Of a stretch of DNA of 32,489 nt, positions 1,139 to 24,060 are shown piece after piece; position 1 is the stretch's first letter, and the number at the start of each line of letters is the position of its first letter. Location of the stretch: positions 1-32,489 of the forward strand of contig JAHLWH010000230.1 of NCBI GenBank assembly GCA_019058015.1, written 5' to 3'. Source of the DNA: Promethearchaeota archaeon (GTDB lineage: Archaea; Asgardarchaeota; Lokiarchaeia; Sigyniarchaeales; SOKP01). The notes under the pieces are model-generated. The model worked only from the letters and a program-made list of their open reading frames with translations, made no database searches and was not told the DNA's origin. The position numbers and the translations under genes were made by a program.

Positions 1139-1618
1139 TTAATTTTTTTTATCGAAAGTTTTTTCTAATACAATTATTATAGGTTTGAAACCTCCACCTT
1201 TACAGATTACATCAATTACTTTTTTATCACCATCATATGCAAAATTAATTCTTATTCTATCAACGCCCCAGGATCTTAAGAGTTTCATCGCTCTATCAGC
1301 CAATATCTTCCCTATACCTTTTCCAAGATATTCTTTCTTGGTTGCCCAACTTTCAAGATAACCAATATATTCACCAAGTGAAGTTTTTTTAGCTTCTAAT
1401 ACTCCTAGAGCTACAACTTTACCTTCAACTTCAGCAACTAATGTCATTCTTTTTAAATTGGGTTTAAATTGCCGTAATCCGGAAGATTCTCTCCATTTAT
1501 CTTCATTAAATCCCATATCATATAATTCTGATAATTCTTTTAAAATTTCAAGAGTTTCTTTATAATCAGATTTTCGGTAATTTCGAATTATAATTTTATC
1601 TTCATCCATAATCAACAC
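1139..1618 (-). CDS. GNAT family N-acetyltransferase
   Basis: IIIRNYRKSD start, LVAEVEGKVVA, and acetyl-CoA binding motif YLGKGIGKIL. Start may be the ATG at 1609. Confidence 0.85.
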   Translation of the reverse strand: MLIMDEDKIIIRNYRKSDYKETLEILKELSELYDMGFNEDKWRESSGLRQFKPNLKRMTLVAEVEGKVVALGVLEAKKTSLGEYIGYLESWATKKEYLGKGIGKILADRAMKLLRSWGVDRIRINFAYDGDKKVIDVICKGGGFKPIIIVLEKTFDKKN

Positions 1619-1634
1619 TATATTTATCTAAATT

Positions 1635-2660
1635 TTACATATATTTTTGTATTTCAATTAGTTGTGTAAAAATTTTTAATTTTTTATCTTTTTGAGATAT
1701 ATTCAAAATATAAGAATCTATATGGGGGTATAATGGGGCTACAAAGAGCAATTCCTCATGTGGATACCATTCATCAACGATTTCATTCAATATTTCTTTT
1801 TCAAAAAAATCTCTAATATGAGAAATTGTTACTTGCATAGAATTCATATTGCTTTCAGAATTGTTTTCAATAACAACTTCTAATTCTTGACTGTTTTTTG
1901 AAAAATTTATTTCTGAAATTTTAAAAGGATTAAAAGTTCCTTGTAACATTTTGGAAGAAGCTGCTTTTTCAAATAGATTTATATCATCATATGGTGCCCC
2001 TTTAAATCCTTTTAATGAAGAAATATAGAATCCCTTTAGTGTTAAAAAAGACATAGCTTTCTGTTTCTTAATTGAATCAGATTTACTGTCCATTACCACA
2101 TCTCCAAAATATTTCAATATGGTATTATGAATATCAAAATTGATATTTCGTTTAATATCATAACTTTTTTTTATATTATCTAACATCGATTTCGTTTTAA
2201 TGACTGCGCTTTTAGCAATTTCTCCCTCAATTAATTCCCATAGAACATCATTATATTTTTGTTGTATTATTTTTGAAAGCTTTTTGATAAGGGAACTTCC
2301 AAAAATTTCAATTTCATTAGGTACGGCGACAATAATAATAATAGTTTCTGGAGTGTCTTTTTTTAATCCTGCCCTCTCTTTTTTTCGTTCAGATTTCACT
2401 AAAAACTTTTTTGCAAAATATACTTTCTTTTTATATTCCAGATCCACATGATCCAATATTTCTTGTTCTTCAAAATCTAAAAACCAAATAGAATGAATGT
2501 TTATTGGTCGCATTACTTTAGGATCATATATTAATTTTTCATCTGGATAAGATAATAAAGGCATATGACCCCTCATTTCATCGAAATAAAGTAAAAAAAC
2601 TTCACACAGATCTAACCTTGAAGAATCTCTTATGCTTTTATCATCAAATATGTTAGCCAT
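1635..2660 (-). CDS. uDENN/longin-like N-terminal domain protein with a shared C-terminal beta-sandwich-like domain
   Basis: N-terminal FLLYFDEMRGHMPLLSYP resembles the hhxFDxxxGxxhxxxYP start of uDENN/longin domains. The C-terminal ~95 aa align with the C-termini of 13692..15185 and 16203..17399. ATG at 2660 is preferred over the 2705 start in the ORF track. Confidence 0.55.
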   Translation of the reverse strand: MANIFDDKSIRDSSRLDLCEVFLLYFDEMRGHMPLLSYPDEKLIYDPKVMRPINIHSIWFLDFEEQEILDHVDLEYKKKVYFAKKFLVKSERKKERAGLKKDTPETIIIIVAVPNEIEIFGSSLIKKLSKIIQQKYNDVLWELIEGEIAKSAVIKTKSMLDNIKKSYDIKRNINFDIHNTILKYFGDVVMDSKSDSIKKQKAMSFLTLKGFYISSLKGFKGAPYDDINLFEKAASSKMLQGTFNPFKISEINFSKNSQELEVVIENNSESNMNSMQVTISHIRDFFEKEILNEIVDEWYPHEELLFVAPLYPHIDSYILNISQKDKKLKIFTQLIEIQKYM

Positions 2661-2804
2661 AATATTATCAAAAAGATGAAATATTAAAAAAACAATATAT
2701 CTCAAATAAACAAATATTAAAATTAAGATAAAATTTTTTGTATTGGTAAAGAATATATTGAATTTTTAACATCTTTATTTTATTTTTTTTTATCTTTTTT
2801 TTTT

Positions 2805-2960
2805 CAGCCAATCTTCTCTTAGCATATAATATCTCAAATCATCAAAATATTTTCCATCAATATATATCTCTTCTTTTAATGTCTCTTTTAATATGAATCC
2901 ATGCTTCTCAGCAATATATGATGAAGGTTTGTTTGGAGCAATTACCAAGTATAAATTTTA
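2805..2960 (-). pseudogene. C-terminal remnant of a RimJ/RimL-type GNAT acetyltransferase
   Basis: Reads VIAPNKPSSYIAEKHGFILKETLKEEIYIDGKYFDDLRYYMLK, matching the N.aS..vaEK.GF..EG.l....idGky.D...Y.l C-terminus. The N-terminal part is missing, and the expected terminal EDW lies in another frame. Confidence 0.65.
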
Positions 2961-2980
2961 ATTCTATGGTCTAAATCTTT

Positions 2981-3418
2981 CTAAATATTGTTTAATGGTC
3001 CTAATTTCTTAATTTGATTTGTAAAAGTAGTTATTAATTCAGCAAATTTTTTCCCTTCACTTGCGGATATCCATTCAAGCCGAAATCTATCTTCTAACCC
3101 CAAGAATTTTAAGATTTTTGTTAATTGTTCAAATCTATCTTTTGTAAATTCATTCCCGCTAATATAATGACAATCTCCTATATGACACCCAGTGACTAAC
3201 ACACCATCTATATTATCCTTAAAAGATTTTAAAATAAAAGCTGGTTCAACTCGACCCGAACACATTACTCGAATTATCCTAATAGAGGCAGGATATTGAA
3301 AACGAGATACTCCAGCCAAATCTGCTCCAGCATAGCTACACCAATTACAACAAAAACATACTATATTAGGTTTAAATTCTATATCTTGTTTTTTACTTGA
3401 TTTTTCTACGATTTTCAT
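2981..3418 (-). CDS. mvhD: MvhD-type [2Fe-2S] subunit (cysteine form)
   Basis: FCCNWCSYAGADLAG, IRVMCSGRV, GVLVTGCHIGDCHYISGN, WISASEG. Confidence 0.93.
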   Translation of the reverse strand: MKIVEKSSKKQDIEFKPNIVCFCCNWCSYAGADLAGVSRFQYPASIRIIRVMCSGRVEPAFILKSFKDNIDGVLVTGCHIGDCHYISGNEFTKDRFEQLTKILKFLGLEDRFRLEWISASEGKKFAELITTFTNQIKKLGPLNNI

Positions 3419-3437
3419 ATTTTTTCATTCATTCTCT

Positions 3438-6400
3438 TTAATTTTTTAAATATGCCTCAATCATCGCATTTATTTGTTTAAAACTAAAATGCTTAATAAT
3501 AATTGCCGAATTAGGGCATTGAACACCACAGGTACCACATCCTTTGCATAACGCAGAATTAACATTGGATTTTTTTAAACGAAGTGTATAATCTTCAAAT
3601 GTTTTTTCAACCTCAATTAATTCTATTGCGTTATATGGACAAACATCAGCACATTTCCCGCAGCCGATACAATAATCTTCTATTACTTCAGCAACAAGAC
3701 CAGAAGTTTTCATTTCTTTAGCACCTAAAATTCTGATGGCTCTTCCAGCTGCACCATTTGCTTGAGCTATTGATTCTTGAATATTCTTAGGCCAATGAGC
3801 ACAACCACATAAAAATACTCCATCTGTTGCAAAATCAATTGGTCTTAGTTTAACGTGAGCTTCTAGAAAAAAACCGCTTTGATCTTGCGGAACTTTCAGC
3901 ATTTTTGATAATTCTTTAAAATTTTCAGGTGCAATCATAGGTGTAGCTAAAATTATAAGATCGCTATAAAATTCTACATCTCCTTTTAAATTGTGTTCGA
4001 ATAGGGTAATTTTATAATTAAATTTTCTATTTTGAGTTTTTGAAATTATAGGAAGTTTATCCAATGAATATCTTAAGAATAAAGCGTTTTTTCTTGAATC
4101 CCTATAAAATTCTTCATTCCCTTTTTTGGACATTTGAAGATCTCGATAAATTAAAATTAATGCCAAATCAGGTTTTAATTTTTTTAGGATATTAATATTC
4201 TTTAATGCATTTGTACAACATATATTAGAACAATATGTTATACCCTTTTTTTGTCTGGAGTTCACACATAAAATAAAGGTAATACTTTTAATATTATCTA
4301 GCCATTCTATATTTTCTTTCCTTAATTTTTGCTCTAATTCAAGTTGTGTAATAACATTTTTTTCTTTTTTGTAATTGTATATTGTTTCCGGTATCAACTC
4401 TTTCGATCCAGTTGCAACAATTATTATTCCAACTTTTATATTATTAACTTTATTTCCTTTAGTAGTTATTATAACATCATAATTTCCAATATATCCCCTA
4501 ATTTCCGTGATATTTGAATTTAAATAAATATTAATGTTTGAATGTGATTTTACTTTATTTACAAAAGGTTCTAAAAATTCTGAGGCTTTTTGATATCCTG
4601 GGAAAATTTGATATAAATTATTTAAATTTCCACCAAGTTGAGATTCCTTTTCTACAAGATGGGTTGTAAACCCTTGTTTTGCAATATTTAATGTGGCGCT
4701 TAAACCAGAGATGCCACCACCGATTATTAATGCCTCTGAAGTAATTGGTAATTTTGATTCTTTTTGTGGTTTTAATAATCTCGATTTTGCAACAGCCATT
4801 TCTATGAGGTCTTTGGCTTTCTTAGTACCATCCACTTTTTGTTCCATATGTACCCAAGAACATTGATCTCGAATATTAACCATTTCAAAAAGATATTTAT
4901 TCAAACCCGCTTCTTCACATGTTTCTTGAAATAATTTTTCATGAGTTCTAGGCGTACACGACGCAACAATAAATCTATTTAAATCATATTCAGCAATCAA
5001 TTCCTTAATACTAGTTTGGGAATCACTAGAACATGAATATAAATTATCTACTGTAATATTCACATTGGGTAATGTTTTGATATATTCTACAACCTGGGGA
5101 ACATCTACATATTTTCCAATATTTATTCCACAATGGCAAATCATAACACCTATGCAAGGTTCATCTTCTAAGTTTATCTTTTTTTCAGGTACAGATACTA
5201 CCTTTTCTTTTAACAGAGTATTTCTCACTGGATATAGTAATGTTGAAACCTTATTTGCTACTCCACTTGCATCAGCAACTGTTTCAGGGATATCTAATGG
5301 TCCTTGACAAAAACCACATAGAAAAATTCCCTCTCGTACAGATGATAATTTATCGTATAATGTCTTTTCCTTAAAAAATTTATATTTATCAATATTTATT
5401 CCTAATATTTTGGCAACTTTCTCAGAATCCTCAGATGGAACCAATGGTGTTGCCAAGATTACTAAATTTGCCCTTAAATCGTTAAACTTTCCATCATTGA
5501 GATCTTCATAATGTATAATTAAATCTTTGGTTTCAGGATCTTCTACTATTTTGCTAATTTTTGAATTAAAATATTTGACCCCATACTCATCTTGTGCTCT
5601 TTGAGTATATTCATAAAAATTTTTTCCATATGCCCTCAAATCATGCCTAAAAATATAACATTCTGAAGAATTCGAATGTTCTTTAGTAATTATTGCTTCC
5701 TTTGCTATATACATACAACAGACACTAGAACAATAAGGAATTCCAATATGAAAATCTCTAGAACCAGCACATTGTATAAAAGCAATTTTTTGGGGTTCCT
5801 TTTCATCTGATAATCTTAAAACGTGCCCCTCGAATGGACCAGAAGCACATAAAATCCTTTCATACTCTAAAGAGGTAATAACATTTTCATATTTATAACC
5901 CCAATTATCTGGAAGTTTAGAAGCTAACATATCAAAACCAATAGCAACTATAATTGCCCCAACTTCTATTTGGACTTCTTCTGGTTTCTGCTCAAAATTA
6001 ATCGCTTGTGCCTCACAGATTCTTTCACAAACTTTACATACTCCTTTATTTAAAAATAAACACATGTCTGAGTCAATTAGATAGACTGGAGGAACAGCTT
6101 GTGGAAATGGGATATAAATAGATTTTCTTTTTCCCAAGTTCATATCAAAAATATTTGGAGCCTCAATCTTAGGACATTTCGAGGCACAATCGCCACAACC
6201 CGTACATTTATTCTCATCCACATATCTTGGTTTTTTTAAAATTTTTATATAAAAATGACCTACATGACCTGATACTTCAATGACTTCTGAATAAGTCATT
6301 AATTCAATATTTGGATTTCTAAAAATCTCAACCATTTTTGGAGCAAGGATACATAAAGAACAATCATTAGTAGGAAATGTTTTGTCTAATTGAGCCATAC

Positions 6401-6563
6401 GCCCTCCAATTGAAGGAGTCTTTTCTACTAGAAATACTTTAAATCCCATTTCAGTTAAATCTAAGGAGGCTTGAATTCCTGCAATACCTCCACCAATTAC
6501 TAAGACTGCTCCGATTAAATCATCAGTTTGACTTTTTTGTGATGATTTTTTACTTTTACTCAT
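3438..6563 (-). CDS. hdrA: Large (1041 aa) heterodisulfide reductase subunit A-like flavoprotein with two HdrA FAD modules (cysteine form)
   Basis: GGGIAGIQASLDL, GGRMAQLDKTFPTNDCSLCILAPKM, inserted ferredoxin, QCAGSRD..YCSSVCCM; then an internal CHCGINI / SCTPRTHE / IRDQCSW domain, a second GGGISG module and a C-terminal 2x[4Fe-4S] domain. Confidence 0.93.
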   Translation of the reverse strand: MSKSKKSSQKSQTDDLIGAVLVIGGGIAGIQASLDLTEMGFKVFLVEKTPSIGGRMAQLDKTFPTNDCSLCILAPKMVEIFRNPNIELMTYSEVIEVSGHVGHFYIKILKKPRYVDENKCTGCGDCASKCPKIEAPNIFDMNLGKRKSIYIPFPQAVPPVYLIDSDMCLFLNKGVCKVCERICEAQAINFEQKPEEVQIEVGAIIVAIGFDMLASKLPDNWGYKYENVITSLEYERILCASGPFEGHVLRLSDEKEPQKIAFIQCAGSRDFHIGIPYCSSVCCMYIAKEAIITKEHSNSSECYIFRHDLRAYGKNFYEYTQRAQDEYGVKYFNSKISKIVEDPETKDLIIHYEDLNDGKFNDLRANLVILATPLVPSEDSEKVAKILGINIDKYKFFKEKTLYDKLSSVREGIFLCGFCQGPLDIPETVADASGVANKVSTLLYPVRNTLLKEKVVSVPEKKINLEDEPCIGVMICHCGINIGKYVDVPQVVEYIKTLPNVNITVDNLYSCSSDSQTSIKELIAEYDLNRFIVASCTPRTHEKLFQETCEEAGLNKYLFEMVNIRDQCSWVHMEQKVDGTKKAKDLIEMAVAKSRLLKPQKESKLPITSEALIIGGGISGLSATLNIAKQGFTTHLVEKESQLGGNLNNLYQIFPGYQKASEFLEPFVNKVKSHSNINIYLNSNITEIRGYIGNYDVIITTKGNKVNNIKVGIIIVATGSKELIPETIYNYKKEKNVITQLELEQKLRKENIEWLDNIKSITFILCVNSRQKKGITYCSNICCTNALKNINILKKLKPDLALILIYRDLQMSKKGNEEFYRDSRKNALFLRYSLDKLPIISKTQNRKFNYKITLFEHNLKGDVEFYSDLIILATPMIAPENFKELSKMLKVPQDQSGFFLEAHVKLRPIDFATDGVFLCGCAHWPKNIQESIAQANGAAGRAIRILGAKEMKTSGLVAEVIEDYCIGCGKCADVCPYNAIELIEVEKTFEDYTLRLKKSNVNSALCKGCGTCGVQCPNSAIIIKHFSFKQINAMIEAYLKN

Positions 6564-6574
6564 TTTGTAGATAC

Positions 6575-7750
6575 CTACTTATTTTGTTTTGAGGGTATAA
6601 CTTCAATAACGTTTTCCAAGAGATTTGATAAATCTATTACATTAATATCTTGGACAGTTTCTGTATCATTTTGAAGGCATCTAAAGTGAATTTCACATTT
6701 TGGACAAGTAGTAATTAAATTATCAGCAACATCTTTAGCTTCCAACATTCTATGATATCGAAGTGCTTTTGCTTGTTCAGAGCAATTTAGCCAACAACTT
6801 ACTCCGCAACATAAAGAATTGGATTTATTGTGAACCATTTCATTATATACATAACCTACTTTTTCCAATTCTTTAAAAATATATCTTATTTTTTCATATA
6901 TATTAAAAGATTTTGGTAAAAATCTACTTAATCTACATGGATCATGATAAGTTAATTTGAGTATTTTTGTGTTTTTCTTTTCCTTTTTAAATTTAATTTT
7001 ATTTTCCTTCAATTTCTCATAAAGATATTCAACAAGGTGTTTAACCTCAATATTAAAATTCTCAAACATCGAAGGATAATCAATTTTAAGAGTCCTATAC
7101 CCTTCTGCACAAGAAGTTACTATTAAAGAAGCTCCACTTCTTTCAAAAGCTTTTATATTATGGATTGCTAATTTTTTAAAAGCTTCGATTTTACCTTGCC
7201 ACAATAAATCATGACCACAACATTTTTCATCTTTCAATAAAACTATTGGTTCATTTTCAATTTTGCATAATATTTTTAAAGTATCTACAGCATTATTCAT
7301 TGACTCATCGAATTCATAATAAAAAAGGGGAGCACATCCTACAAAATATAAGATATTTCCCTCTTCTGATACCTTACACCCAGAAGGAACCCACTCAAAA
7401 GTCTTTTCCGGAGTAATATTTTCTTTACTCATAATTTCCGAAAGAAGTGTATAGAATCCCTTATGAGCAATTTTAGGCATAATTCCGGCATCCAACATTT
7501 TATTTCTTGCATCACGTACTATTTCAGCAAAATTAACTTCATGTGGACATTTTTCAAGGCAAGAATTGCAAGTTAAGCAATCCCAAAGCATTCCACTTTC
7601 AACAATTCGATCTTCAAAACCTTCAATGATCAGTTGTATTATCCTACTAGGAGTGTATTTTTGGATTCTTCCCATTTGGCAAATGCCACTACACATAGCA
7701 CATTGATAGCAATTATTAAGATATTCTCTTAATTTTCCTTTTATAACCAT
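6575..7750 (-). CDS. HdrD-like (HdrC-HdrB type) Fe-S / CCG-domain oxidoreductase
   Basis: CYQCAMCSGIC and WDCLTCNSCLEKCP ferredoxin motifs; two CCG domains (KCCGH..VTSCAEG; YHDPCRL..LCCG..TTCPKC). Confidence 0.88.
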   Translation of the reverse strand: MVIKGKLREYLNNCYQCAMCSGICQMGRIQKYTPSRIIQLIIEGFEDRIVESGMLWDCLTCNSCLEKCPHEVNFAEIVRDARNKMLDAGIMPKIAHKGFYTLLSEIMSKENITPEKTFEWVPSGCKVSEEGNILYFVGCAPLFYYEFDESMNNAVDTLKILCKIENEPIVLLKDEKCCGHDLLWQGKIEAFKKLAIHNIKAFERSGASLIVTSCAEGYRTLKIDYPSMFENFNIEVKHLVEYLYEKLKENKIKFKKEKKNTKILKLTYHDPCRLSRFLPKSFNIYEKIRYIFKELEKVGYVYNEMVHNKSNSLCCGVSCWLNCSEQAKALRYHRMLEAKDVADNLITTCPKCEIHFRCLQNDTETVQDINVIDLSNLLENVIEVIPSKQNK

Positions 7751-7775
7751 AGAATTGTTAGAAATTTGAGTAATT

Positions 7776-8888
7776 TTAAAATTTAACTCCTAAATTTTTT
7801 TGCGATAAATTATATCTATCTTCTTTATATTTTGAAAACTGAATTAATTTTTCTAACATTTTTTCTCTTTTTCCTTCTAAATCCTCTAAAACTTTTATAT
7901 ATCCCTCATTTATAGCGGATTTAACAATATTTGTTCCAAGTTTGGTTCTAGGTATAGTTGTTGTATATTTTTCAGGTGATGATAACCCACCAAATGAAAT
8001 ATCTGCATAAATATTAGTAAAATCATTACATGCATTACAAGCGGAACGTATATAATCTGATAATTCACTAAACGATATATGCTGAATAATTTCACTTCCT
8101 TTTAATTTTATTAACATATCTTCCTTAATATTTAATTTCTCAATCTCTTCAATTTTTAAATTAAATTGAGTTTCAAATTTCTCTTTTTTATCTTTACCCA
8201 TTGTAAAATTTCCATAACAAAATAATCCAAGAAGATATTTTATATTTTGAGAGGGGGTAACCCCCATTTCATGCATACATCTTATCGTATAAATTTGACA
8301 AGGCGTTCCTATAACAGCTAACTTTTTAAATTTATATCTATTTAATGCCATAATTGTAGGACTATAAGTACTAAAATTAGCAATTTCTGTTACTTGTGAA
8401 GAAATATCAAAATGAGAACCTGCAGCTAAAATTAAATCATTTTTAGATTTTGCAATCATTGAATCTCTCGAAAATGGTCCCAACTTTTTTGAAACGATTG
8501 CTCCATCAATTAAATTATGTTCCAATAAATACAATAATATAGCAGATACTACTCCACCATCAGTTCCATTTTTTAAGAGATCTTTATCTAATGCTTGAAA
8601 TGAATATATCTCTTTATAATTACCAAGTGGTTTGATATAATTATATTGATTATTTAAATTATTTTCTAATACTTTAGTTTGTGGACAAATATGATAACAT
8701 ATTCCGCACTCTAAGCATTCTTTTTCATTTATAAATTGTGGTGGCAAATCTGGTTTAATAAAATCAATAATCCTATAATCAGCAGAACTACAAAAACTTA
8801 CACACCCACCACATAATTGACAAATGCCTTTATCATGAACTTCTTTAATTAAATCTTTAAAATTTTTTATTCGTTTATCTTGACTCAT
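7776..8888 (-). CDS. Coenzyme F420 hydrogenase/dehydrogenase beta subunit (FrhB/FdhB family)
   Basis: CQLCGGCVSFC and CLECGICYHICP; DGGVVSA, VIGTPCQ, LGLFC, ACNACNDFT..ADISFGG. Confidence 0.9.
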   Translation of the reverse strand: MSQDKRIKNFKDLIKEVHDKGICQLCGGCVSFCSSADYRIIDFIKPDLPPQFINEKECLECGICYHICPQTKVLENNLNNQYNYIKPLGNYKEIYSFQALDKDLLKNGTDGGVVSAILLYLLEHNLIDGAIVSKKLGPFSRDSMIAKSKNDLILAAGSHFDISSQVTEIANFSTYSPTIMALNRYKFKKLAVIGTPCQIYTIRCMHEMGVTPSQNIKYLLGLFCYGNFTMGKDKKEKFETQFNLKIEEIEKLNIKEDMLIKLKGSEIIQHISFSELSDYIRSACNACNDFTNIYADISFGGLSSPEKYTTTIPRTKLGTNIVKSAINEGYIKVLEDLEGKREKMLEKLIQFSKYKEDRYNLSQKNLGVKF

Positions 8889-8905
8889 TTTTCAACAAAA
8901 TTTTA

Positions 8906-10387
8906 TTATTTTTTTACATTGAATTCAATTTTTTTGCATTTTGAATTTTTAATTCTTGAAATTTTCTTAACCAAACCGAATCCAGGTTTTACTTCAGCTA
9001 AATCCTTAACTTCTACTAAATTGCCATTTATCAATTTATTAAATAAATCATTTCCAACTTTTGTTCTTGTAATAACTGAAGACCAACCTGCACTTGAGCC
9101 TATTGAACCTACTGAAATATCTGCAAATTCGGATGTTAAATCACTACAATAATGGCATACATCTCTTGCTAAGGAAGTTAATTCTTTTAATGGAACTTTG
9201 GCTTCTTCTCCATTTTTATCTTTGACAATAAATTTTCCTCCACTAATGTCCATTTTTAAAATGTTCTCTAATTTCTTATTAAAAATTTCAGTGCTTATAT
9301 TGATAACATTATCATAGCTGAATGATTCCATGCAGAATAAACCAATAGTATATTTAATATTATTAAAAATAGATGTTCCAATTGGATAAATACTTCCTTT
9401 TTTGAGTGCTAACATCATACATGGAGTTCCAACGACTGCAATTTTATCAAATTTTTGTGCTTCATTCAAAATTGTTAAACTTGGAGAATTAGCATATTTT
9501 GTACCAGCGGTTTTATAAAGACCATCAACATTTTCAATTATAATAGGTTTTGGTCTCCAAATATCTTCAGAATGGGTTACTGCTATCGCAGCATCAATTT
9601 CTTTTTCTTTCAGTAAATAATATAATAATGTTGTTACTATACCACCATCTTGGCATACTTCTTTAATTTCATCACTTTTTGTACTTGCAGTATATGCATT
9701 TATATAATAATTACTTGCGGCACCATCCTTCAAATTAGGATTTAATTTATTTAAAACTGTAAAAATATGCTCAGATGGAAATGACCTCGGGCAAACAGAA
9801 AAACAAAGTCCGCATTTAATGCAAGTCTCAGAATCAATTTTAAGATCATCTGCAAATACTGTTATTGAGCCAACTGGGCATATTGATGAACAATAACCGC
9901 AATTACAACAAAAATTATTCTCAAATACTAAAGAAACTGGCTCAAAATAATTTTCTCGAAAAGAATTATCAAGGGATTTGGCTTGATATCGAACAATTTC
10001 AATCTTTATTTCTTTATCTATCAAATTTCCCTCTTTATTTTTTACTTTTTTGATTTCTGTCTTTATTTCAATTAATTTTTCAACATAACCTTGTTGGGTT
10101 AAATATTCAACTGTTGGTACTAATTTTTTCTTATCATATTCCACTTTCTCCACTATTTCTTCAAGAGTAAGCGGAGGAAGCCCCATTAATTTTTTTAATA
10201 TTAAATTTCTTTCTGTCTCAGCATCGAGAAGTGAATCTAAAATAAAATTAAAATCTTCCTCACTAAATCTTCCAAATTTTAAAATATCATCTTTTCCTTC
10301 ATATAACGCACGAATTTGAAAATTACTTATAGCGTTATATGTAGATTCCATTAAATTTTTTAGATCAATATTTTCTATAAGATCCAC
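8906..10387 (-). CDS. FrhB/FdhB family protein with an N-terminal winged-helix-like extension
   Basis: Two CxxCxxCxxxCP motifs, QDGGIVT, VGTPCM, IGLFCMESF, CHYCSDLTSEFADISVGSIGS. The first ~150 aa contain LTLEEIVEKVEYDKKKLVPTVEYLTQQGYV. GTG start preceded by AGGAAG. Confidence 0.88.
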   Translation of the reverse strand: MDLIENIDLKNLMESTYNAISNFQIRALYEGKDDILKFGRFSEEDFNFILDSLLDAETERNLILKKLMGLPPLTLEEIVEKVEYDKKKLVPTVEYLTQQGYVEKLIEIKTEIKKVKNKEGNLIDKEIKIEIVRYQAKSLDNSFRENYFEPVSLVFENNFCCNCGYCSSICPVGSITVFADDLKIDSETCIKCGLCFSVCPRSFPSEHIFTVLNKLNPNLKDGAASNYYINAYTASTKSDEIKEVCQDGGIVTTLLYYLLKEKEIDAAIAVTHSEDIWRPKPIIIENVDGLYKTAGTKYANSPSLTILNEAQKFDKIAVVGTPCMMLALKKGSIYPIGTSIFNNIKYTIGLFCMESFSYDNVINISTEIFNKKLENILKMDISGGKFIVKDKNGEEAKVPLKELTSLARDVCHYCSDLTSEFADISVGSIGSSAGWSSVITRTKVGNDLFNKLINGNLVEVKDLAEVKPGFGLVKKISRIKNSKCKKIEFNVKK

Positions 10388-10410
10388 CTTCCTAATTAAA
10401 TTTTTTTAAG

Positions 10411-10489
10411 CCCCCATATCCCTTGCAGGGATGTCCCAATAAAATTTCTTAATTTTAAGCTTTCATTTTAAAGATCATTCAAATGGGGG
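10411..10489 (-). promoter_or_regulatory. Eukaryote-like SECIS element (type II-like)
   Basis: mRNA reads CCCCCAU UUGA AUGA UCUUUAAAAU GAAAG CUUAA AA UUAAG AA AUUUUAUUGG GAC AUCCCU GCA AGGGAU AUGGGGG. This gives helix I CCCCCAU/AUGGGGG, an AUGA/GA core, a 10-position helix II (two U.U mismatches), AAA 11 nt after the core, and a CUUAA/UUAAG ministem. It lies directly 3' of two UGA-containing genes. Confidence 0.82.
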
Positions 10490-10946
10490 TTTTGGTTATT
10501 AATTTTTTATCTACTTCTTTTATTTCTGCCTTAATAACTGCTTGATCTGTTTTTAATGGATTCAATCCCAATTTTTCTACTTTATTTACCATATCTTCGA
10601 CCGATTTTACAAATTTTACAGCTTCAGCTCCAGAGCAGTTATACATGTTTACTCGGTCTCCTCCCAGACCACGCCTATCTAGAATTCTCTTAACAAATTT
10701 GACATGCTTTGCGGCAATAAAGTTTCCAGTTTTAAATTCACATTGATTTTCTTGTCATCCTACAACCATTACTCCATCGGCACCATTATTAATTGCATAA
10801 ATTAGGTGTTTTATATCGACTCTACCTGTACATCGCAGACGAATAATTTTTACATTGGGAGTATATTTCAATCTTGAAACACCAGCTAAATCTGCAGCAC
10901 TATAACCTCATTTATTACAAGCAAACGTAATGATATTCATTTTCAT
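10479..10946 (-). CDS. vhuD: Selenocysteine-containing MvhD/VhuD (155 aa; U13, U64), absent from the ORF track
   Basis: Manual translation: MKMNIITFACNK-UGA-GYSAADLAGVSRLKYTPNVKIIRLRCTGRVD...GADGVMVVG-UGA-QENQCEFKTGN...LGLNPLK...TKTPI-stop. The UGAs at 10908-10910 and 10755-10757 align with Cys in the paralog at 2981..3418. AGGTGA ribosome-binding motif lies upstream. Confidence 0.92.
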
Positions 10947-10969
10947 ATATCTCACCTGAATTTTTCGGT

Positions 10970-12913
10970 TTATACATTTACTTCCATTATTAATGCTAGA
11001 ACTTGATTAAATATTTGATCATCTGTATAATATCTAATTTGTATTGCTTGAGTTGGACAACATGTTGCACAGATTCCACACCCGTCACAATTGATCTCAT
11101 CGACCTCAGCAATTTTTCCTTCAGGTACAATAATAGTATTCTTTGGACAAATTTTTTCGCAGCGATAACAAGAAATACAATTTTTTTCATTAACAATCGC
11201 ACATATTAATTCAAGCTCCGCTTCTCCCTTGGATGTCAATTCTGCAACCTTACTTGCGGCTGCTCTCGCTTGAGAAACCGAGTATGATATATTTTTTGGT
11301 CCTTGCGCAAACCCACAAATATAAATCCCTAGATATTTAGTTTCCTGAGGGCTTAAGCCAAAATGATGTTCAGTCAGGTATCCATTTGTATCATAATCAA
11401 TTCCAAGAACATCTGCTATTTGTCTCGTTCCTTTAGATGGTAATACTGCAGTTGATAAAACAACTAAGTCTGCATCAATTTTTATTATCTCATCTGTTAA
11501 TGAAGAATATACTCTTACCTTGAGATTTTTGGTTTCAGAATCCTCTATTAGTTCTGGAACTTTACCCCGAATAAAGTCAATACCTTTATCACGAGTTCTC
11601 ATATAGTATTCTTCAAAGTTCTTTTCAAATGCTCTTATATCAATGTAGCAGATGGTTATATGGCAATCAGGGATTTCTTCTTTAAGTAATTTAGCATTTT
11701 TTAAAGCGATCATGCAACACACACCAGAACAATACGCATTTTCTGTATCTCTCGAGCCAACACATTGAATAAATAATATTTCTTTAGGTGTTTTTCCATC
11801 TGATGGTCTTTTTACATGGCCCATTGTTGGACCATTTGGTGCTAATATCCTTTCAAGCTGGATTTCGTTTATAACATTTTGATATTCTCCATATCCATAT
11901 TCTGTAGGATTATATAAGTCCCAACCCGTTGCAACTATTATTGTACCCACTTCAATTTCGATACATTCAGGTTCTTGACTCAAATCAATTGCATGTGGCT
12001 CGCAAGCATCTACACAAGCATATCATTCAACGCAAGATTCTTTTTCAAGATCATAAACAAAAGGAATAGCTTGCCCAAAAGATATATCGATACATTTTCT
12101 TGAACCTAAATTTTCTTGCCAATAATTTGGTATGTAAATTGGACATACTGGCGTACAATCTCCACAACCATTGCACAAATCTTCTATAACATATCTAGGT
12201 TTTTTCTTTATCGTAACTTCATAATTTCCAACATATCCTTCAACTTTATCAACTTCACTACAACTAATAATTTCAATATTCTCATTTCGATTAGCTTCAA
12301 GCATTTTTGGACCAAGAATTCATATAGAACAATCATCAGTTGGAAATGTTCGATCTAACTGAGCCATTCTGCCCCCAATTGTAGTTTTACTCTCTATTAC
12401 ATACACCCTTATTCCTTGATTTGCCAGATCTAATGCCGCATTTAATCCAGCGATTCCTCCACCAACTACTAAAGTAGATTTTTTTATAGGGATAATTTTT
12501 GTCGGTACTATTTCCAATCTTTTAGCCCTTTCATAACCTGCTCTGCTTAAAATCTTTGCTTTATCGGTTGCTGAAACTTCGTCTTCAGTAATCCAAGAAC
12601 ATTGTTCTCTAATATTTACCATTTGAAAATAAAATTTACTAAGTCCTGCCCGTTCTAAAGACTCTCTATAAATCGGTTCATGAGTTCTAGGAGTTCAAGC
12701 TGCAACTACAACCCGATTAATCTTTTTTTCTTTGATATCGTCCATTATTAATTTCTGTCCTTGTTCAGTACATAAAAAACTAAAGATGCGACTTGTTTCA
12801 ACATTATCAAATTGTTTCATATACTCTGCAACTTCAGAACAATCAACTTTCGCAGAAATATTCAAGCCTCATTGACATGCATAATATCCAATGCGTAAAA
12901 TTTCTTTACTCAA
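10970..12913 (-). CDS. hdrA: Selenocysteine-containing heterodisulfide reductase subunit A (647 aa; U15, U73, U198, U297)
   Basis: ORF-track pieces 12320..12622, 12023..12304 and 10970..11983 are one frame. It extends to TTG at 12913 and is interrupted only by TGA at 12869-71 (ACQ-U-GLNI), 12695-97 (VAA-U-TPRTHE), 12320-22 (DDCSI-U-ILGPKM) and 12023-25 (SCVE-U-YACVDAC). Ends at TAA. Confidence 0.93.
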
Positions 12914-13089
12914 TTTTTTTTCACATCAACTCGTTTTATGATTTTTATTTAAAAATTTATACTATTAGATTAAAAAATTTAAAATGCTCCAAATTAAAAA
13001 AATTTTTTATATTAATTTTCAGATTCAATAATTTTACATTTAGAAATTACCTTATTTAATAACTTTTATCTTAATGATTATATAAATTA

Positions 13090-13256
13090 TTCGATACTGA
13101 CAGAAATGGAAAATAGAATAATTATTCGTTTCGAGAAACCATAAGAAATTATTTTAAGTTATACGGTTTCGGTTATTATTTCCGATTCTCCAAATATTTG
13201 TATGAGATTACTTTCGAGACTGATAACTTTGTTAATAATAATTTCGAAAACTAATA
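13090..13256. promoter_or_regulatory. Repeated TTCGA-N-ACT-like motifs in the divergent promoter region (putative regulator binding sites)
   Basis: TTCGATACTGACA (13090), TTCGAGAAACCATA (13130), TTCGAGACTGATA (13213) and TTCGAAAACTAATA (13243) in an otherwise very AT-rich background. Confidence 0.35.
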
Positions 13257-13320
13257 AAAAATAAAAAAAGAATTTTCAAATCCAAAAATATATTTAATAA
13301 AATTCATTAAATTCCTATAG

Positions 13321-13560
13321 AAATTTAATAACAAGAACAAGATTTGCAAAAGACAGACAATAGAACTATTAAGTAAATATTTCAATTCAAGTAATAGAGC
13401 AAACATTAAAAGAGATGCGGTTAAACATTTGGGAGAAATTGGTGATGAAAAAATTCTTAAGCATCTTTTATAATGTGTAGGAAATTATCATTGAAAAGTT
13501 CGGCTCTTAACTACTAAAATGATAAAAAAATTGAAGCAAGATCGACAAAATAATCAATAA
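13321..13560 (+). pseudogene. Degraded HEAT-repeat (PBS lyase-like) protein remnant
   Basis: IELLSKYFNSSNRANIKRDAVKHLGEIGDEKILKHLL*CVGNYH*KVRLLTTKMIKKL fits the HEAT consensus but has an in-frame TAA (13471) and TGA (13492) and no start codon. Confidence 0.6.
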
Positions 13561-13691
13561 CTTATCTGTTTTTACTTGATGTCTTTTTTTAAAAATTAAA
13601 TTACTATTTAATTTTAATAATTTTTTTTAAGGATAAAGTTTTTTATAAAGTAATTATAACCAAATCTCTGTGTAAATAGAGGTTTTATAGA

Positions 13692-15185
13692 GTGAGTGAA
13701 GAAGTAAATAAAGTAAGATCTGAATCTAAATATGAACATTCTTTTGAATATATAAAAAAGAAATTAGAAGGGAAAAAAGATTCATTTGGAAAATTAGTAA
13801 AGGAAGTTATAAGAACAGGTGTTTGCACTCATTGTGGCACTTGTGCAGCGATTTGCAGTGCTCTTGAATGGGATCCAATTTTAGAAGAACCACGATTAGT
13901 CGGTCAATGTTCTGGGTGTGGAATTTGTTATAATCAATGTCCGAGGACTATTACTAATCCCGAACAACTTGTTGGTCATTTTAAAACAGGTTATGTTACG
14001 AAAAGTGGAATTCCTGAAGTTATTAGTGGTCAGGACGGAGGAACCGTTACGAGCTTATTATGTTATTTATTTGATGAAAATTTGATTGATGGAGCAGTTG
14101 TTACTAAAAAAAATCCAAATAAACCATGGGTTCCGTTGCCTCAACTTATTACTACTAAAGAAGAAGCTATCGAAGCTTCTGGTTCTATTTATAGCCATTC
14201 ACAAACAGTTGATTCTTTAATGGACGGGATTAGAAATGACATGGGCTCTATCGCATTTGTAGGAACTCCTTGCAACATAGATGCTGTGTTTAAAATGGAA
14301 AGTAGTCCACTTGGAATGTTAAAATATTTTATGAGAGCACATGTTTTTAAAATTGGATTATTTTGTATGGATTCATTTTCACATGAAGCATTATTACCAT
14401 TTTTTGAGAAGGAGGGAATTAATTTAGCGGAAATAACAAAAATGGATATCAATAAAGGAAGATTTTATCTTTATAAAGGAGATACAGAAGTAAAATCCTA
14501 TAAAATAAAGGAATTAGATAAATTTAAATCATCAAGTTGCAATTTTTGCACAGATTTAGCTGCTGAAAATGCTGATATCTCGGTGGGTTCTGTTGGAAGT
14601 GGACCGATGAAAAACACAGTTTTAGCACGATCAGGTATAGGAGTAGAAATTATGGAGGACGCTATAAAAAAGGGATATTTTCTTTCTGAACCATTTTCAG
14701 TGGAAAATTTAAATTCTGTCTTGTTCCTAGCAAGATTAAAGAAAGTATCTCAATATACGGTTCTTAAAAGGAAGGTTTTTATAGTTAAAGATATAGATAG
14801 AGAAGAACCATTTAGACCAAGACCAGAATTGAAAGAGCAAGCTGAGGTCGCAACGCCGTTTGGAACAAGAAAAATATTAAGGATTACTCAAAAACTGAAT
14901 GAAAGTCAAACGGCTACTACAATTACAATAGAAAATGTTATTGGATATCTTCTTGAAAATTTACAAATTAGGGTTGCTGTTGTGGAAGAACTATTCGAAA
15001 AACGACCTTGGAGTACAACAATAAAAGAAATTTTTCCTTTTGAATCTATTCAGATTAGTTATCCATTAGAAATTAAAGATGGAAAACATGTTCTTGGAGA
15101 AATAATTATAGATATTTCTGATTCACATAGAAAACTCTTTTTTAAGAAATACTCTCTGAAACCAAAAGAAAAAAAATCAAAATAA
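13692..15185 (+). CDS. FrhB/FdhB family F420-interacting Fe-S flavoprotein with a C-terminal ~100 aa beta-sandwich-like extension
   Basis: CTHCGTCAAIC, CSGCGICYNQCP, QDGGTVT, FVGTPCN, IGLFCMDSF, CNFCTDLAAENADISVGSVGS. Extra C-terminal domain from ~14870. Confidence 0.88.
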   Translation: MSEEVNKVRSESKYEHSFEYIKKKLEGKKDSFGKLVKEVIRTGVCTHCGTCAAICSALEWDPILEEPRLVGQCSGCGICYNQCPRTITNPEQLVGHFKTGYVTKSGIPEVISGQDGGTVTSLLCYLFDENLIDGAVVTKKNPNKPWVPLPQLITTKEEAIEASGSIYSHSQTVDSLMDGIRNDMGSIAFVGTPCNIDAVFKMESSPLGMLKYFMRAHVFKIGLFCMDSFSHEALLPFFEKEGINLAEITKMDINKGRFYLYKGDTEVKSYKIKELDKFKSSSCNFCTDLAAENADISVGSVGSGPMKNTVLARSGIGVEIMEDAIKKGYFLSEPFSVENLNSVLFLARLKKVSQYTVLKRKVFIVKDIDREEPFRPRPELKEQAEVATPFGTRKILRITQKLNESQTATTITIENVIGYLLENLQIRVAVVEELFEKRPWSTTIKEIFPFESIQISYPLEIKDGKHVLGEIIIDISDSHRKLFFKKYSLKPKEKKSK

Positions 15186-15263
15186 TAGATAAAACAATTT
15201 TTCAACAAAATTTTTATAAAATCAAATTAAAAATTTAAATAAGAATAAACGAGATATAAAAAA

Positions 15264-16175
15264 ATGAAAATTAGTTTAATAGGATTGTCTGGTTGTGGCA
15301 AAACCTCTTTATATTCGGTAATATTCGCGGAAAAAACACCTGAAGAAACAAAGAGATTATCTCCAACGATACTCTATGAAACAAGAAGGCATCCTTTTTT
15401 AGGATTAGAAATATCAATTTTTGACTTTGGAGGCCAAGACCAATACATCAAAGAATATCTTGATAAGCCGAAAATATTCATGGGTACGGATGTTTTGATT
15501 CCCGTGGTTGATTTGCACGATCCAAATTCTTTTGATAAATCAAAAAAGTATTTTGAAGATGTTATAAAACTTTATAAAGAGAATTATCAGAAACCAAAAA
15601 TTTGTATGTTTTATCATAAATATGATACTGAAGATTATCAAAAGGAACTTTTAGATACAAATATAATAAAAGCTCGAGAGATTTTTTCGGACATATTCAA
15701 AGATTATAAGCCACAAACTTTTCTAACGAGTATCTATGATCAACAAAATTTAACAAAGATCTTCAGAGATATATTAATGGGATCTTATTCAGAATTAAAG
15801 GGTCATATAGAAAAAGCGGAAAAGCACTTACAGGAGATAAATGCGAGAATTATTATTTCCGATATATCAGGAAATGTATTAGTTCATAATGTTCAAGGAG
15901 TTTCAAGCGGACTATCATTAAGGGCAGATTTAAGAGATTTTATTAGTTCCTGTAATGTAATTAGAGAGAATGTTTTTTTATCTGATTCTGCAGAGTTTAA
16001 AGGAAATTCAGAAGAAGGTAAAGAACTTCAACTGTATATTTTTAAATATATATTAGCTGTTTTAATAATGAAATCGGAAGGGGAATTGGATCCTGAATCT
16101 TCTGAGAAGATTCGTGTATTGTTAAAAGATATGAAATTATTTTCTGACATAATTGTTTCTATTCATTCTGAATAA
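15264..16175 (+). CDS. Rag/Gtr1-like small GTPase with a C-terminal roadblock-like domain
   Basis: G1 GLSGCGKTS followed by SVIF, G2 LSPT, G3 FDFGGQ, G4 HKYD and G5 TSIYD; HKxD and TSIxD are typical of the Rag family. C-terminal IIISDISGNVLV is roadblock-like. Confidence 0.85.
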   Translation: MKISLIGLSGCGKTSLYSVIFAEKTPEETKRLSPTILYETRRHPFLGLEISIFDFGGQDQYIKEYLDKPKIFMGTDVLIPVVDLHDPNSFDKSKKYFEDVIKLYKENYQKPKICMFYHKYDTEDYQKELLDTNIIKAREIFSDIFKDYKPQTFLTSIYDQQNLTKIFRDILMGSYSELKGHIEKAEKHLQEINARIIISDISGNVLVHNVQGVSSGLSLRADLRDFISSCNVIRENVFLSDSAEFKGNSEEGKELQLYIFKYILAVLIMKSEGELDPESSEKIRVLLKDMKLFSDIIVSIHSE

Positions 16176-16202
16176 TATTTTTAAAACGATCAAACGATAA
16201 AA

Positions 16203-17399
16203 ATGAAATTAAGTCTTGATAATGATGATAGTATCATTTTGGGAGATTATCTTAATGTAATTACTAAAACTACATTTGAAGAAACAACTGAGATCTTGTG
16301 GGGAGGTTTAAAATTAATTTCTAAAAACCCATGTAAAAGAGACTTAATTATAACCAAATCTGAAATATTCAATCAAGGTACTTTTGAGGCTGGAGAATAT
16401 ATAAGAAAAAGATCACAACTTATTAATCCCAACGTAGTTCCAACAATTCCAGCAAGAAATATTCACTACTTAGTTAAAATGACTTTAAGAATTAAAAGTC
16501 CTCTTAATTCTCAAAAAGAAATAGAAATTTTTAAAGAAAATCCCATTAAAATTTTTCCAAAAGAGAATATATATCATAATAGAATTCCCACTCCAATTAA
16601 ATTAATTATGTCTGGGATAGATCTTGAAATTTCTAAAGATATTTTTAAACCAGGCGAGGCTATTAAGATTGATTATAAAACAAGCAATTTAGCATTATTT
16701 CAAATAAGATTAAAACAAAAGGCTAATTTAATATGTATTTGTGAACCTTTTGGTGAACAATGTGGAAGTACTGAGGAATTACCACCAGTGATTGCTGGTG
16801 GAGCAAAAACATCCAAAACAGATCACGGTTTTCTATTGATAAAAATTCCAAATCACGCTGAACCAAGTCATGAATATCTTTGGGAACCTCAAGAAAAAGA
16901 ACAGTGGGGAGTTAAATTTGGGGATTATTCTAAATGGTTTCTGGAGATAATAGGAAATAGGAAAAGAGAAGTCGGGGGAGATATAATCTCTTTTGAAATC
17001 CCAATTACTATTAAACCTCAAAAACAACAAAATATAATCGAAACTGGTTTATTTAGAGAAAGAGAAGAGGGTTTAGAATTATTTGAAGCCCCTCCTGCAA
17101 TAAAAAAAGGTATGAATATAATTTCTATTGATACTGATAAAGATACTTCTATAAGTACATTTATTTATAAATTGCGAATAAAAAATAATCTCAAAGATAT
17201 TCTTAATGGTGTTACAATAGAAAACTCAGGTATTCAACGAGGTCTATTCGAGACCTATAAGCATATGACAGGTTTTAATTCATGGCTACCAGGAGAAGAA
17301 AAAATAATTGAATATAAAACAAGGCAAGAAATCGATACTTTAATTTCTACTATCAAAACAAATTCTCAAAAACAAACTAGAATTCAAACAATTCTATGA
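16203..17399 (+). CDS. Arrestin/Vps26/SpoOM-fold protein with a shared C-terminal beta-sandwich-like domain
   Basis: Arrestin-N-like FEAGEY..INPNVVPTI...IHYLVKMTL; arrestin-C-like SKDIFKPGEAIKIDY..IKIPNHAEPS..FEIPITI; third domain from ~17110. Confidence 0.62.
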   Translation: MKLSLDNDDSIILGDYLNVITKTTFEETTEILWGGLKLISKNPCKRDLIITKSEIFNQGTFEAGEYIRKRSQLINPNVVPTIPARNIHYLVKMTLRIKSPLNSQKEIEIFKENPIKIFPKENIYHNRIPTPIKLIMSGIDLEISKDIFKPGEAIKIDYKTSNLALFQIRLKQKANLICICEPFGEQCGSTEELPPVIAGGAKTSKTDHGFLLIKIPNHAEPSHEYLWEPQEKEQWGVKFGDYSKWFLEIIGNRKREVGGDIISFEIPITIKPQKQQNIIETGLFREREEGLELFEAPPAIKKGMNIISIDTDKDTSISTFIYKLRIKNNLKDILNGVTIENSGIQRGLFETYKHMTGFNSWLPGEEKIIEYKTRQEIDTLISTIKTNSQKQTRIQTIL

Positions 17400-19179: not shown

Positions 19180-19207
19180 GTTTAAAATATCAAAACAAAG
19201 TAAAATT

Positions 19208-20023: not shown

Positions 20024-20031
20024 ATTCATTT

Positions 20032-22702: not shown

Positions 22703-22913
22703 TAAATAAAAAATCCTCGTAAATGGAAAAAAAAAATCCTACTAAAAATTCTCTTTTTAATTATATTATTTTGAAAAATATTAGTTAAAATAGGTTTTTA
22801 AATGCAAACTCTATTATCTATGAGAGAGTATAAATTTTTTCAAAGGGGTTTTTGAGGAGATTTATAAATATATTTAGGGTTAGAGTTTTTAAAAGAAAGC
22901 ATTTTCACGCAAA

Positions 22914-23812: not shown

Positions 23813-24060
23813 GCGAATTATATTATTCATTGAAAAACACTTTTACTACTTAGAAAGACATTTAAAATTCTTTCTGAATTGAATAAAGAAACTTTTTATG
23901 AAAATTCTCAAAATCTAAAAGAATAATTTATTTTCTATTGTTATTAATTACAAAATCCTTATATAAAAAATGGACTTAATCAAGATTAGTTACCCGATAA
24001 TAAATAGATATAAATATATGATTGAGATAAAATTAAATTAAAAAATAGAATTTCATAGAA

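Follow-up and report, generated by a model that had tools for sequence, protein, structure and literature searches.

What Rag-like GTPases do in Asgard archaea is unknown according to Tran et al. 2024 (PMC10933270), who also report that the GTPase genes of MK-D1, a cultured Lokiarchaeon, lie generally outside regulator operons, which makes it hard to match them with GTPase-activating proteins (GAPs) or guanine nucleotide exchange factors (GEFs). A study of 15 Asgard longins leaves open whether their partner GTPase is of the Rag/Gtr or the Arf-related type (PMC12290439), and a preprint reports NPRL2-like longins together with an operon of a LAMTOR1-like protein, a Rab-like GTPase and a DENN protein, the GTPase not being of the Rag family (Liu et al. 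2020, 10.1101/2020.10.19.343400). Here, we describe a gene cluster around a RagA/Gtr1-type GTPase on a contig of a Promethearchaeota archaeon (assembly GCA_019058015.1, contig JAHLWH010000230.1, positions 1 to 32,489 of the forward strand; this whole stretch of 32,489 nucleotides is referred to as the window). Three otherwise unrelated proteins of this cluster, namely a longin protein (A), an FrhB-type oxidoreductase (B) and an arrestin-like protein (C), end in one and the same C-terminal domain, labeled X.

The cluster resembles the eukaryotic Rag system (RagA/C, Gtr1/2, with the regulators GATOR1 NPRL2-NPRL3 and FLCN-FNIP2) in the linkage of a RagA/Gtr1-type GTPase with a longin that has FLCN and NPRL2 as its closest structural matches. 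A conserved loop arginine, a pair of arginine-bearing and arginine-less paralogs within one lineage, and the attachment of metabolic sensor domains are further shared traits. In contrast to the eukaryotic system, DENN domains and the C-terminal domains of NPRL are lacking and the cluster showed no Ragulator-like genes; it usually has one Rag ortholog instead of an A/C pair, partnered by an FrhB redox enzyme and an arrestin-like protein. No eukaryotic counterpart of X was found in structure, Pfam or PDB profile searches.

Among prokaryotic systems, the GAP-type longins already reported from Asgard archaea (NPRL2-like and FLCN/SMCR8-type; 10.1101/2020.10.19.343400; PMC12290439) are like protein A in kind, whereas the accessible parts of those papers connect such longins with neither a Rag gene nor FrhB or arrestin, and family A carries a G-H-x-P motif rather than a strict GP motif. 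The words "arrestin" and "FrhB" do not occur in the main text of the 2020 preprint. Its LAMTOR1-like/Rab-like/DENN operon, as far as described there, is likewise a conserved operon joining a small GTPase with longin/roadblock-type regulators, but the present cluster has a Rag-type GTPase, other partners and the X domain. The MglA/MglB pair similarly encodes a prokaryotic Ras-superfamily switch near a GAP of the roadblock/longin superfamily; here, by contrast, the GTPase is of the Rag type with a C-terminal extension of its own, an FLCN/NPRL2-like longin is the candidate GAP, and there are additional partners that bear X. Immunoglobulin (Ig)-like appendages (ear, GAE) on adaptor and BBSome subunits serve as platforms for protein docking. 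They share with X the arrangement of a C-terminal beta-sandwich on otherwise unrelated subunits, yet X has no sequence relation to them, and its structural score against them is tied with those of glycosidase, ASF1 and transglutaminase domains. No published description of this gene cluster or of X was found in the literature searched, although papers outside that coverage are possible. The cluster thus offers a concrete and testable pairing of one Rag ortholog with one longin family, in which the Rag-paired longin carries the same rare domain as a redox enzyme and an arrestin-like protein.

Results

The window is AT-rich (~29% GC) and belongs to an assembly of 3.84 Mb in 283 contigs; close homologs of its genes carry the source names Promethearchaeota or Lokiarchaeota. 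Genomes of relatives were coded with G-numbers, families with f-numbers, fetched regions with L-numbers and representative proteins with P-numbers. Coordinates of the features are collected in Table 1. The genes of B, the GTPase and C lie on the same strand, the GTPase gene beginning 78 bp past B and C beginning 27 bp past the GTPase.

Table 1. Features of the Rag-centered cluster and of adjoining genes in the window
Feature	Position	Strand	Basis or remark
Protein A: longin, helical region, linker and X	1635..2660	-	341 aa; ATG start at 2660
Longin of A (residues 20-136), candidate GAP-type	2253..2603	-	Structural matches FLCN, NPRL2
X of A	1638..1925	-	hhalign; joint HMM E=7.7e-31; 7-strand model, pLDDT 92
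Protein B: FrhB/FdhB-family iron-sulfur flavoprotein with C-terminal X	13692..15185	+	497 aa; Pfam
X of B	14856..15167	+	Profile search of genomes E=1.8e-32; joint HMM E=7e-20
RagA/Gtr1-type GTPase	15264..16175	+	303 aa; Pfam Gtr1_RagA E=3.2e-27
Protein C: arrestin-like with C-terminal X	16203..17399	+	398 aa; Arrestin_C sub-threshold in family
X of C	17100..17396	+	Joint HMM E=6.6e-26; C-type clade support 98/99
FrhB paralog without X	8906-10387	-	Recurs beside module
HdrA-like gene with two in-frame TGA	10970-12622	-	Recurs beside module
Other HdrA-like gene	3438-6563		
GNAT acetyltransferase gene adjoining A	1139-1618	-	

Three tails form one domain family

An earlier note made from the letters of the window had proposed that the three proteins share an alignable tail of about 95 residues, and the strings it quoted are present at the ends of A, B and C. 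Profiles of 85 A, 9 B and 120 C tails were compared with hhalign, using gathered homologs (84 of A, 8 of the B tail, and 120 of the 125 collected for C). The A-B comparison (probability 94.1, E=1.2e-7, score 44.2) and the A-C comparison (probability 94.4, E=8.9e-8, score 44.4) were both significant, so that the outcome which the note had named as its refutation did not arise; B-C, with a shallow B profile, gave probability 28.7, E=6e-4 and score 25.7. All three pairs aligned in the same register, and when a tail profile was run against the whole-length profile of another family, the alignment fell on the tail of that family.

Chance or compositional bias in a genome of ~29% GC could in principle produce such a likeness, and single-sequence comparisons taken by themselves would leave room for it: in phmmer searches of each tail against the 10,228 six-frame open reading frames (ORFs) of the genome, the best cross-match was B to A at E=0.71 with no other, and pairwise BLAST of the tails with composition correction off gave merely suggestive values. 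At the profile level, this explanation is refuted. Reversed profiles scored at most 13.4, and the maxima of 30 column shuffles per pair were 20.7 (A-B), 20.0 (A-C) and 16.1 (B-C), so that the real scores exceed the best shuffle more than twofold for A-B and A-C and 1.6-fold for B-C. The hidden Markov model (HMM) of tail A, run against the genome ORFs, ranked the tails of B (E=3.1e-5) and C (E=0.011) highest after its own match, and the only confident matches of the joint HMM in the genome were the three tails. The three tails are therefore a real homologous domain.

The alignment of A with B holds without gaps over the core, and that of C requires one insertion of a single residue before the FE motif plus a short earlier one, much as had been described. 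In the 17-row alignment of all three types, three positions do not vary (N26, E47 and E62, as numbered in the A tail), and at least 90% of the rows have F46.

X is an Ig-like sandwich without a specific relative

A structural model of the A tail, computed with the 17-row alignment, was confident (predicted local distance difference test [pLDDT], 92.1; predicted template modeling score [pTM], 0.83) and all-beta, with seven strands in two sheets spanning residues 6 to 96. Both the proposed length and the proposed beta-rich, Ig-like nature of the domain agree with this model and with its beta-sandwich structural matches. A VIA structure search returned 43 PDB representatives at Z>=8, with beta-sandwich domains throughout among the matches listed. 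Foldseek and the exhaustive VIA search together retrieved generic Ig-like sandwiches only, with a top Z of 10.0 and no family standing out; the types included GH2/GH3 accessory domains, a DUF3244 protein, BBSome GAE, ASF1, transglutaminase C-terminal domains, FlaF/FlaG and RhoGDI. The BBSome GAE domain (6vbu_1; Z 9.5, root mean square deviation [rmsd] 3.0, 91 aligned residues) was within 1 Z of GH2, ASF1 and transglutaminase domains. The structure searches suggested by the note thus returned the Ig-like sandwich, but not a specific structural relative.

Sequence searches pointed the same way. No Pfam family was matched by more than one of 17 X sequences at E<=1, and the PDB profile search with X gave only visual arrestin, at E=0.23; CARDB clusters appeared in the atlas at 0.84, which is a lead only. 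Accordingly, the likening of X to adaptin-ear, TRAPP or CARDB domains stands as a generic resemblance of fold, whereas the Pfam and PDB profile searches gave no significant match to any of the named families. The idea that X is a third arrestin lobe was also rejected, as the hhalign probability of X with either lobe (N or C) of family C was at most 3.3%. X is a new sequence family with a common fold, and as an undescribed domain family it is suited to curation.

In a tree of 66 X domains, the C-type domains formed a single clade (98/99) and the backbone between types was unresolved. The branching within each type follows the genome families; therefore, the trio is old and has been inherited vertically.

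X is rare and confined to few architectures

In its own genome, X occurs in three copies, those of A, B and C, as judged by the joint HMM against the 10,228 ORFs. Candidate fourth copies (C21_17541, E=0.0088 and partial; C42_3161; C101_1629) were read and found not credible. A profile search of 1,835,955,588 representative proteins gave 88 matches to X at E<=0.001, which by their non-X parts comprised 35 of A type (one with four CBS domains), 8 of FrhB type, 11 of arrestin type, 29 fragments of at most 200 aa, 1 unclassified protein of 267 aa and 4 giant repeat proteins. The giant proteins (P0263, P0268, P0288, P0299) were set aside, their weak and partial matches over multiple stretches being treated as generic Ig/repeat similarity.

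Across 400 genomes of the phylum, X was found in 179, typically with three matches in frames of ~350, 500 and 400 aa. It was nearly universal in some families (f1, 129/134; f16, 22/22; f21, 6/6; f20, 5/5; f4, 4/4; f5, 3/3), and 20 listed families had no match. The profile search of partner domains and neighborhoods that the note had called for thus revealed few architectures and a conserved neighborhood with the Rag-like GTPase; three copies per genome in few architectures are not the picture of a generic Ig fold scattered over unlinked Loki genes.

The GTPase is a Rag ortholog that travels with X

The GTPase belongs to the Rag/Gtr family, matching Pfam Gtr1_RagA with 95.9 bits against a cut-off of 22. 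The profile of its orthologs matched human RagA and the Gtr1 proteins of yeast and S. pombe at E values of 1e-21 to 1e-19, and more weakly RagC/D (1e-12), Gtr2 (1e-10) and Arf/Arl (1e-9); its best solved relative, ahead of human RagA, was PDB 8yl2_A, a 342-aa "GTP-binding protein" (E=5e-29). Histidine in place of asparagine in the G4 motif (HKxD) is a feature of Rag/Gtr proteins. The P-loop, DFGGQ and HKxD motifs are invariant, with H118, K119 and D121 present in 24/24 orthologs. Rag/Gtr proteins dimerize through a C-terminal roadblock domain; in the present family, the G domain is followed by ~110 conserved residues, and profile alignments to Gtr2 extend to residue 229. The genome also encodes a second Rag paralog (G000:C188:6579-7475), 55% identical to that of the window, which occurs in the three other Rag-positive genomes of the genus as well.

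A Rag ortholog (E<=1e-70) was present in 154 of the 400 genomes, in the same families as X: 153 genomes had both, 26 had X only, 1 (G158) had Rag only, and 220 had neither. In one X-only genome (G130, f2), a frameshifted Rag gene lies between B and C. By family, Rag was found in 8 of the 10 listed families with X (9 of 10 with the frameshifted gene of G130) and in none of the 20 without X; three families were pooled in these tallies, and the single positive genome among them (G397, f32) has both X and Rag.

Gene linkage was assessed in 27 Rag-centered neighborhoods from 10 coded families, namely the window and 26 picked for taxonomic spread. B directly adjoins Rag in 22 of them. C directly adjoins it in 14 and lies within 7 kb in 18, and A lies within 12 kb in 16, in addition to a probable truncated copy in G126. 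The four genes are near-contiguous in f4, f5, f7, f20 and f21, in the order A-B-Rag-C, but B-Rag-C-A in f4. In f1, both matches are listed for 63 genomes, and in 57 of these the B-type X match (in a frame of ~500 aa) ends 82-133 bp ahead of Rag; the other six comprise five with gaps of 1.4-4.8 kb and one with the two matches on separate contigs. A conserved neighborhood with the Rag-like GTPase, anticipated in the note, is hence apparent both from B lying next to Rag in 22/27 regions and from the 153 genomes with X and Rag.

Protein A carries a longin with a conserved loop arginine

The listed ORF of A (1635-2705, minus strand) extends to a TTG at 2705, and its homologs of 339-349 aa point to the ATG at 2660 as the start. 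Pfam assigned no family to A, and a PDB sequence-profile search with family A gave no match at E<=10. The structural model showed a longin of beta-beta-alpha-beta-beta-beta-alpha topology (residues 20-136), helices (140-208), a disordered linker (215-243) and X (246-340), and its assignment to the longin fold rests on this topology together with structural matches. The best VIA matches of the longin were FLCN within the lysosomal folliculin complex (6nzd_H; Z 11.2, 144 aligned residues, rmsd 3.4) and NPRL2 within GATOR1 (8fw5_B; Z 10.8), along with the yeast SEA complex (8adl_S; Z 9.9), and ordinary longins reached Z 9-10. No DENN family was detected in A by Pfam at E<=0.01, and after the longin only the helices, the linker and X follow. 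Of the former label "uDENN/longin-like", therefore, the longin and the helical region hold, whereas the DENN core does not, the nearest structures being the GAP longins FLCN and NPRL2.

Two positions of the longin are strongly conserved: G31 before strand 2 (73/74 members) and R92 (69/74 members), which lies in a long loop between strands 4 and 5 (79-88 and 105-114). R92 is a candidate counterpart of the arginine finger of GAP longins (R164 in FLCN, R78 in NPRL2). GAP longins are defined in PMC12290439 by a GP motif before or at the start of the second strand, and FLCN, NPRL2 and SMCR8 are given there as the arginine-bearing subunits. Family f16 lacks C but has two A paralogs, of which one has the arginine loop and the other does not in 4/4 genomes. 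The eukaryotic FLCN/FNIP2 and NPRL2/NPRL3 pairs show the same arginine asymmetry.

Ligand-binding domains accompany A in several lineages. In some A homologs, an Lrp/AsnC ligand-binding domain replaces X (the RAM-domain variants P0090-P0093). A-X-CBS fusions occur in G128 (f7) and P0247, a CBS protein adjoins A in G281 (f4), and a stand-alone protein with four CBS domains is encoded between A and B in G125 (f5), with ORFs of 285-286 aa at the equivalent place in G123 and G124. An apparent "X-CBS" protein with N-terminal X in G126 was set aside, as its frame stops no more than 72 bases short of the end of its contig and its X clusters with those of the A-X-CBS fusions; it is probably a truncated A-X-CBS protein and not a new architecture.

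Some other genes recur near A. The GNAT gene is found beside or close to A in G281 (f4) and G130 (f2). Peptidase_C25 (gingipain-type) proteins of 673-871 aa are encoded between A and B in f20 and f21 (G117, G115 and G116; L031:11059-13080, L032:9639-12188, L043:9530-12145), two of them with a DUF4350/GIFT-like region, and such a protein is a possible effector of the module.

Protein B is an FrhB-type redox protein

The label of FrhB oxidoreductase was borne out: B matched Pfam FrhB_FdhB_C (E=1.2e-38) and FrhB_FdhB_N (E=1.8e-20) with 132.8 and 73.3 bits, where the cut-offs are 23.3 and 22. B looks like a working redox protein because its twelve cysteines are invariant in 32 orthologs, a sequence trait by which it is apparently a functional FrhB-type flavin and iron-sulfur enzyme. 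In G062 (f16), FrhB-X is absent from the three X matches of the genome, and a GltD/NfnB-type flavoprotein of 577 aa (Fer4_20 and Pyr_redox_2) ends in X instead. Its gene (L047:12958-14691, plus strand, corresponding to G062:C182) adjoins two A paralogs, lies within 7 kb of a Rag-type gene and sits in a redox operon with molybdopterin and PyrK-like Fe-S proteins.

The interval between A and B in the window is filled by a minus-strand Hdr-like redox cluster which, according to Pfam, encodes FlpD, two HdrA-like proteins, a CCG-domain protein and two more FrhB paralogs without the tail. Hdr-like or FrhB paralog genes were present within the fetched region in 12 of the 27 neighborhoods. The description of the X-bearing genes as flanking the Hdr operon is accurate for the window, but in other families A adjoins B without intervening Hdr genes.

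One HdrA-like gene consists of three listed ORFs (100, 93 and 337 aa) with two in-frame TGA codons (Table 1), both at cysteine-equivalent positions (in DCSI*IL and in a CxxCxxCxxxC-type motif), and homologs elsewhere comprise one ORF of 441-454 aa plus one of ~100 or 170 aa. From their positions, the two TGA codons likely encode selenocysteine. Near B itself, an ACAD-like gene adjoins it in G130 and a HEAT-repeat protein is encoded upstream in G173; in G126, an unlinked FrhB-X gene has a GFO/IDH/MocA neighbor, as is also the case in f9 (see Discussion).

Protein C resembles arrestins

Pfam assigned no family to the C protein of the window, with no Arrestin_C match. In family C, Arrestin_C was detected at E<=0.1 in 20/35 members (best 6.4e-6), one member reaching 24.6 bits against a cut-off of 27.7; the best PDB sequence match of C was an arrestin-domain protein (E=0.017), and its atlas neighbors were Arrestin/Vps26 clusters (0.85-0.87). 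The arrestin-like label is thus moderately supported, through sub-threshold matches in the family. The arrestin-like part also holds four cysteines that are nearly invariant (C44, C178, C180, C187), possibly a site for metal binding or for redox sensing.

Among the window's genes at 17974-20439, the 271-aa ORF (19208-20023) has homologs downstream of C in G173, G165 and G163, and the 135-aa ORF (20032-20439) in G173 and G165. In G117, four ORFs of 423-434 aa follow C (L031:1569-6864, minus strand), and the one that was scanned has a V4R domain.

Discussion

Our data indicate a new domain family that marks a conserved Rag-centered gene cluster, and the cluster is of the Rag-plus-longin-GAP type. 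That X marks a functional module together with the Rag ortholog is highly probable. In the mechanism we favor, at a rough probability of 0.55, X physically assembles this module: a lineage-restricted Ig-like sandwich would serve as the common protein-protein docking domain around the RagA/Gtr1-type GTPase, recruiting A, B and C to a common partner, which would be the GTPase or one another. The folliculin/NPRL2-type longin of A would act as a GAP through loop residue R92, B would couple the switch to the redox or F420/ferredoxin state (a GltD/NfnB-type flavoprotein with X taking its place in one lineage), and C could be an arrestin-like adaptor serving as output or scaffold. CBS-domain proteins may add adenosyl-ligand (energy) sensing in some lineages.

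Taken together, the cluster suggests that archaea have a counterpart of the Rag switch used for nutrient sensing in eukaryotes, and its biology is likely to be Rag-type metabolic signaling rather than vesicle trafficking. A more far-reaching possibility, which we put forward tentatively and against the odds, is a proto-Rag nutrient, energy and redox pathway in many Asgard archaea, composed of Rag, a longin GAP, CBS and redox inputs and an arrestin-like output held together by X, with the GAP in one lineage being a heterodimer of arginine-bearing and arginine-less paralogs. If the proposed complex is real, it would link a eukaryote-type GTPase switch to archaeal energy metabolism and provide a handle on the origin of Rag nutrient sensing; under the more far-reaching reading, the cluster would represent a prokaryotic forerunner of Rag-GATOR1/FLCN, and a GTPase partner could be assigned to the Asgard GAP-type longins.

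Several observations weigh against assembly of a Rag-centered module by X. The three genomes of f9 have FrhB-X (L067:6259-7692, L068:6444-8030), flanked by a GFO/IDH/MocA oxidoreductase and a TrmB-type regulator, without a Rag ortholog, A or C; therefore, X can occur outside the module. C-type X is missing from f16, and in f1, A and often C are located far from B-Rag, as in G188, where C is 80 kb and A ~790 kb away. The co-occurrence counts overstate the support because related genomes are not independent, and some absences may be misses, as no more than 12 X candidates and 5 Rag candidates were scored in each genome of the survey. With regard to structure, the fold matches of X are generic, a top Z of ~10 being common to many unrelated beta-sandwich domains. 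The lead of FLCN and NPRL2 over other longins is below 1.2 Z, nearly a tie, and fold alone does not decide the subtype of the longin because ordinary longins score 9-10. A strict GP motif is absent from A, which has G31-H-x-P34 in its place, with P34 in 64/74 members. Finally, we infer binding by X, its partner, the GAP activity and the direction of information flow, and with respect to binding this also counts on the negative side. A complex prediction with Rag and the X domains of A and C, in which X of B was the scored partner, gave a score of 0.00 with an uncertain partner fold and no controls, and says nothing either way.

The cluster might instead be mainly a metabolic enzyme system, with FrhB-X (or GltD-like-X) as a working subunit of an Hdr/FrhB-type electron-transfer complex whose assembly, placement or turnover is controlled by the GTPase, the longin and the arrestin-like protein. 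Information would then flow from the switch to the enzyme, and X would still be a docking domain. The invariance of all Fe-S cysteines of B fits such a role, as do the Hdr-like and FrhB paralog genes beside the module in 12/27 neighborhoods, the placement of GltD-like-X in a redox operon that also encodes molybdopterin and PyrK-like Fe-S proteins, and the f9 FrhB-X that adjoins another oxidoreductase without any switch. However, the CBS fusions to A and the RAM-domain variants of its longin part (P0090-P0093) look like inputs to a switch, and B is tied more closely to Rag (22/27) than to any redox gene, leaving this explanation unlikely.

Quite improbable, in our view, is the alternative that the common target of X is not a protein but, for instance, a lipid of the membrane, a glycan or a small molecule, so that X co-locates the proteins without direct contacts between them, in the manner of lipid-binding Ig-like or C2-like domains. 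The Ig-like domain of RhoGDI holds a lipid group, and RhoGDI is in the Foldseek list of X (E ~1e-3; template modeling [TM] score, 0.46); the invariant residues of X are polar, and B-type X has a basic C-terminal tail. Yet the RhoGDI match is no better than those of glycosidase accessory domains, no membrane anchor or lipid-binding motif was identified, and the strict coupling with a single GTPase ortholog is more in keeping with a protein partner. A purely structural role, in which X is a cap without a common partner whose copies persist by descent while linkage reflects co-regulation, seems slightly less probable again. Ig-like domains are often passive spacers, and an interaction of X is something that we infer; against this, three protein families have retained one rare domain, its invariant polar residues included, in at least nine coded families, and X has been attached to a fourth type of enzyme in the same cluster. 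Docking by X around the Rag ortholog remains the reading that we prefer.

Beyond the cluster, Pfam identified a PAS-PAS histidine kinase, a TPR protein and a ThiF/E1-like protein in the window at 20630-27547, along with several ORFs without a Pfam family.

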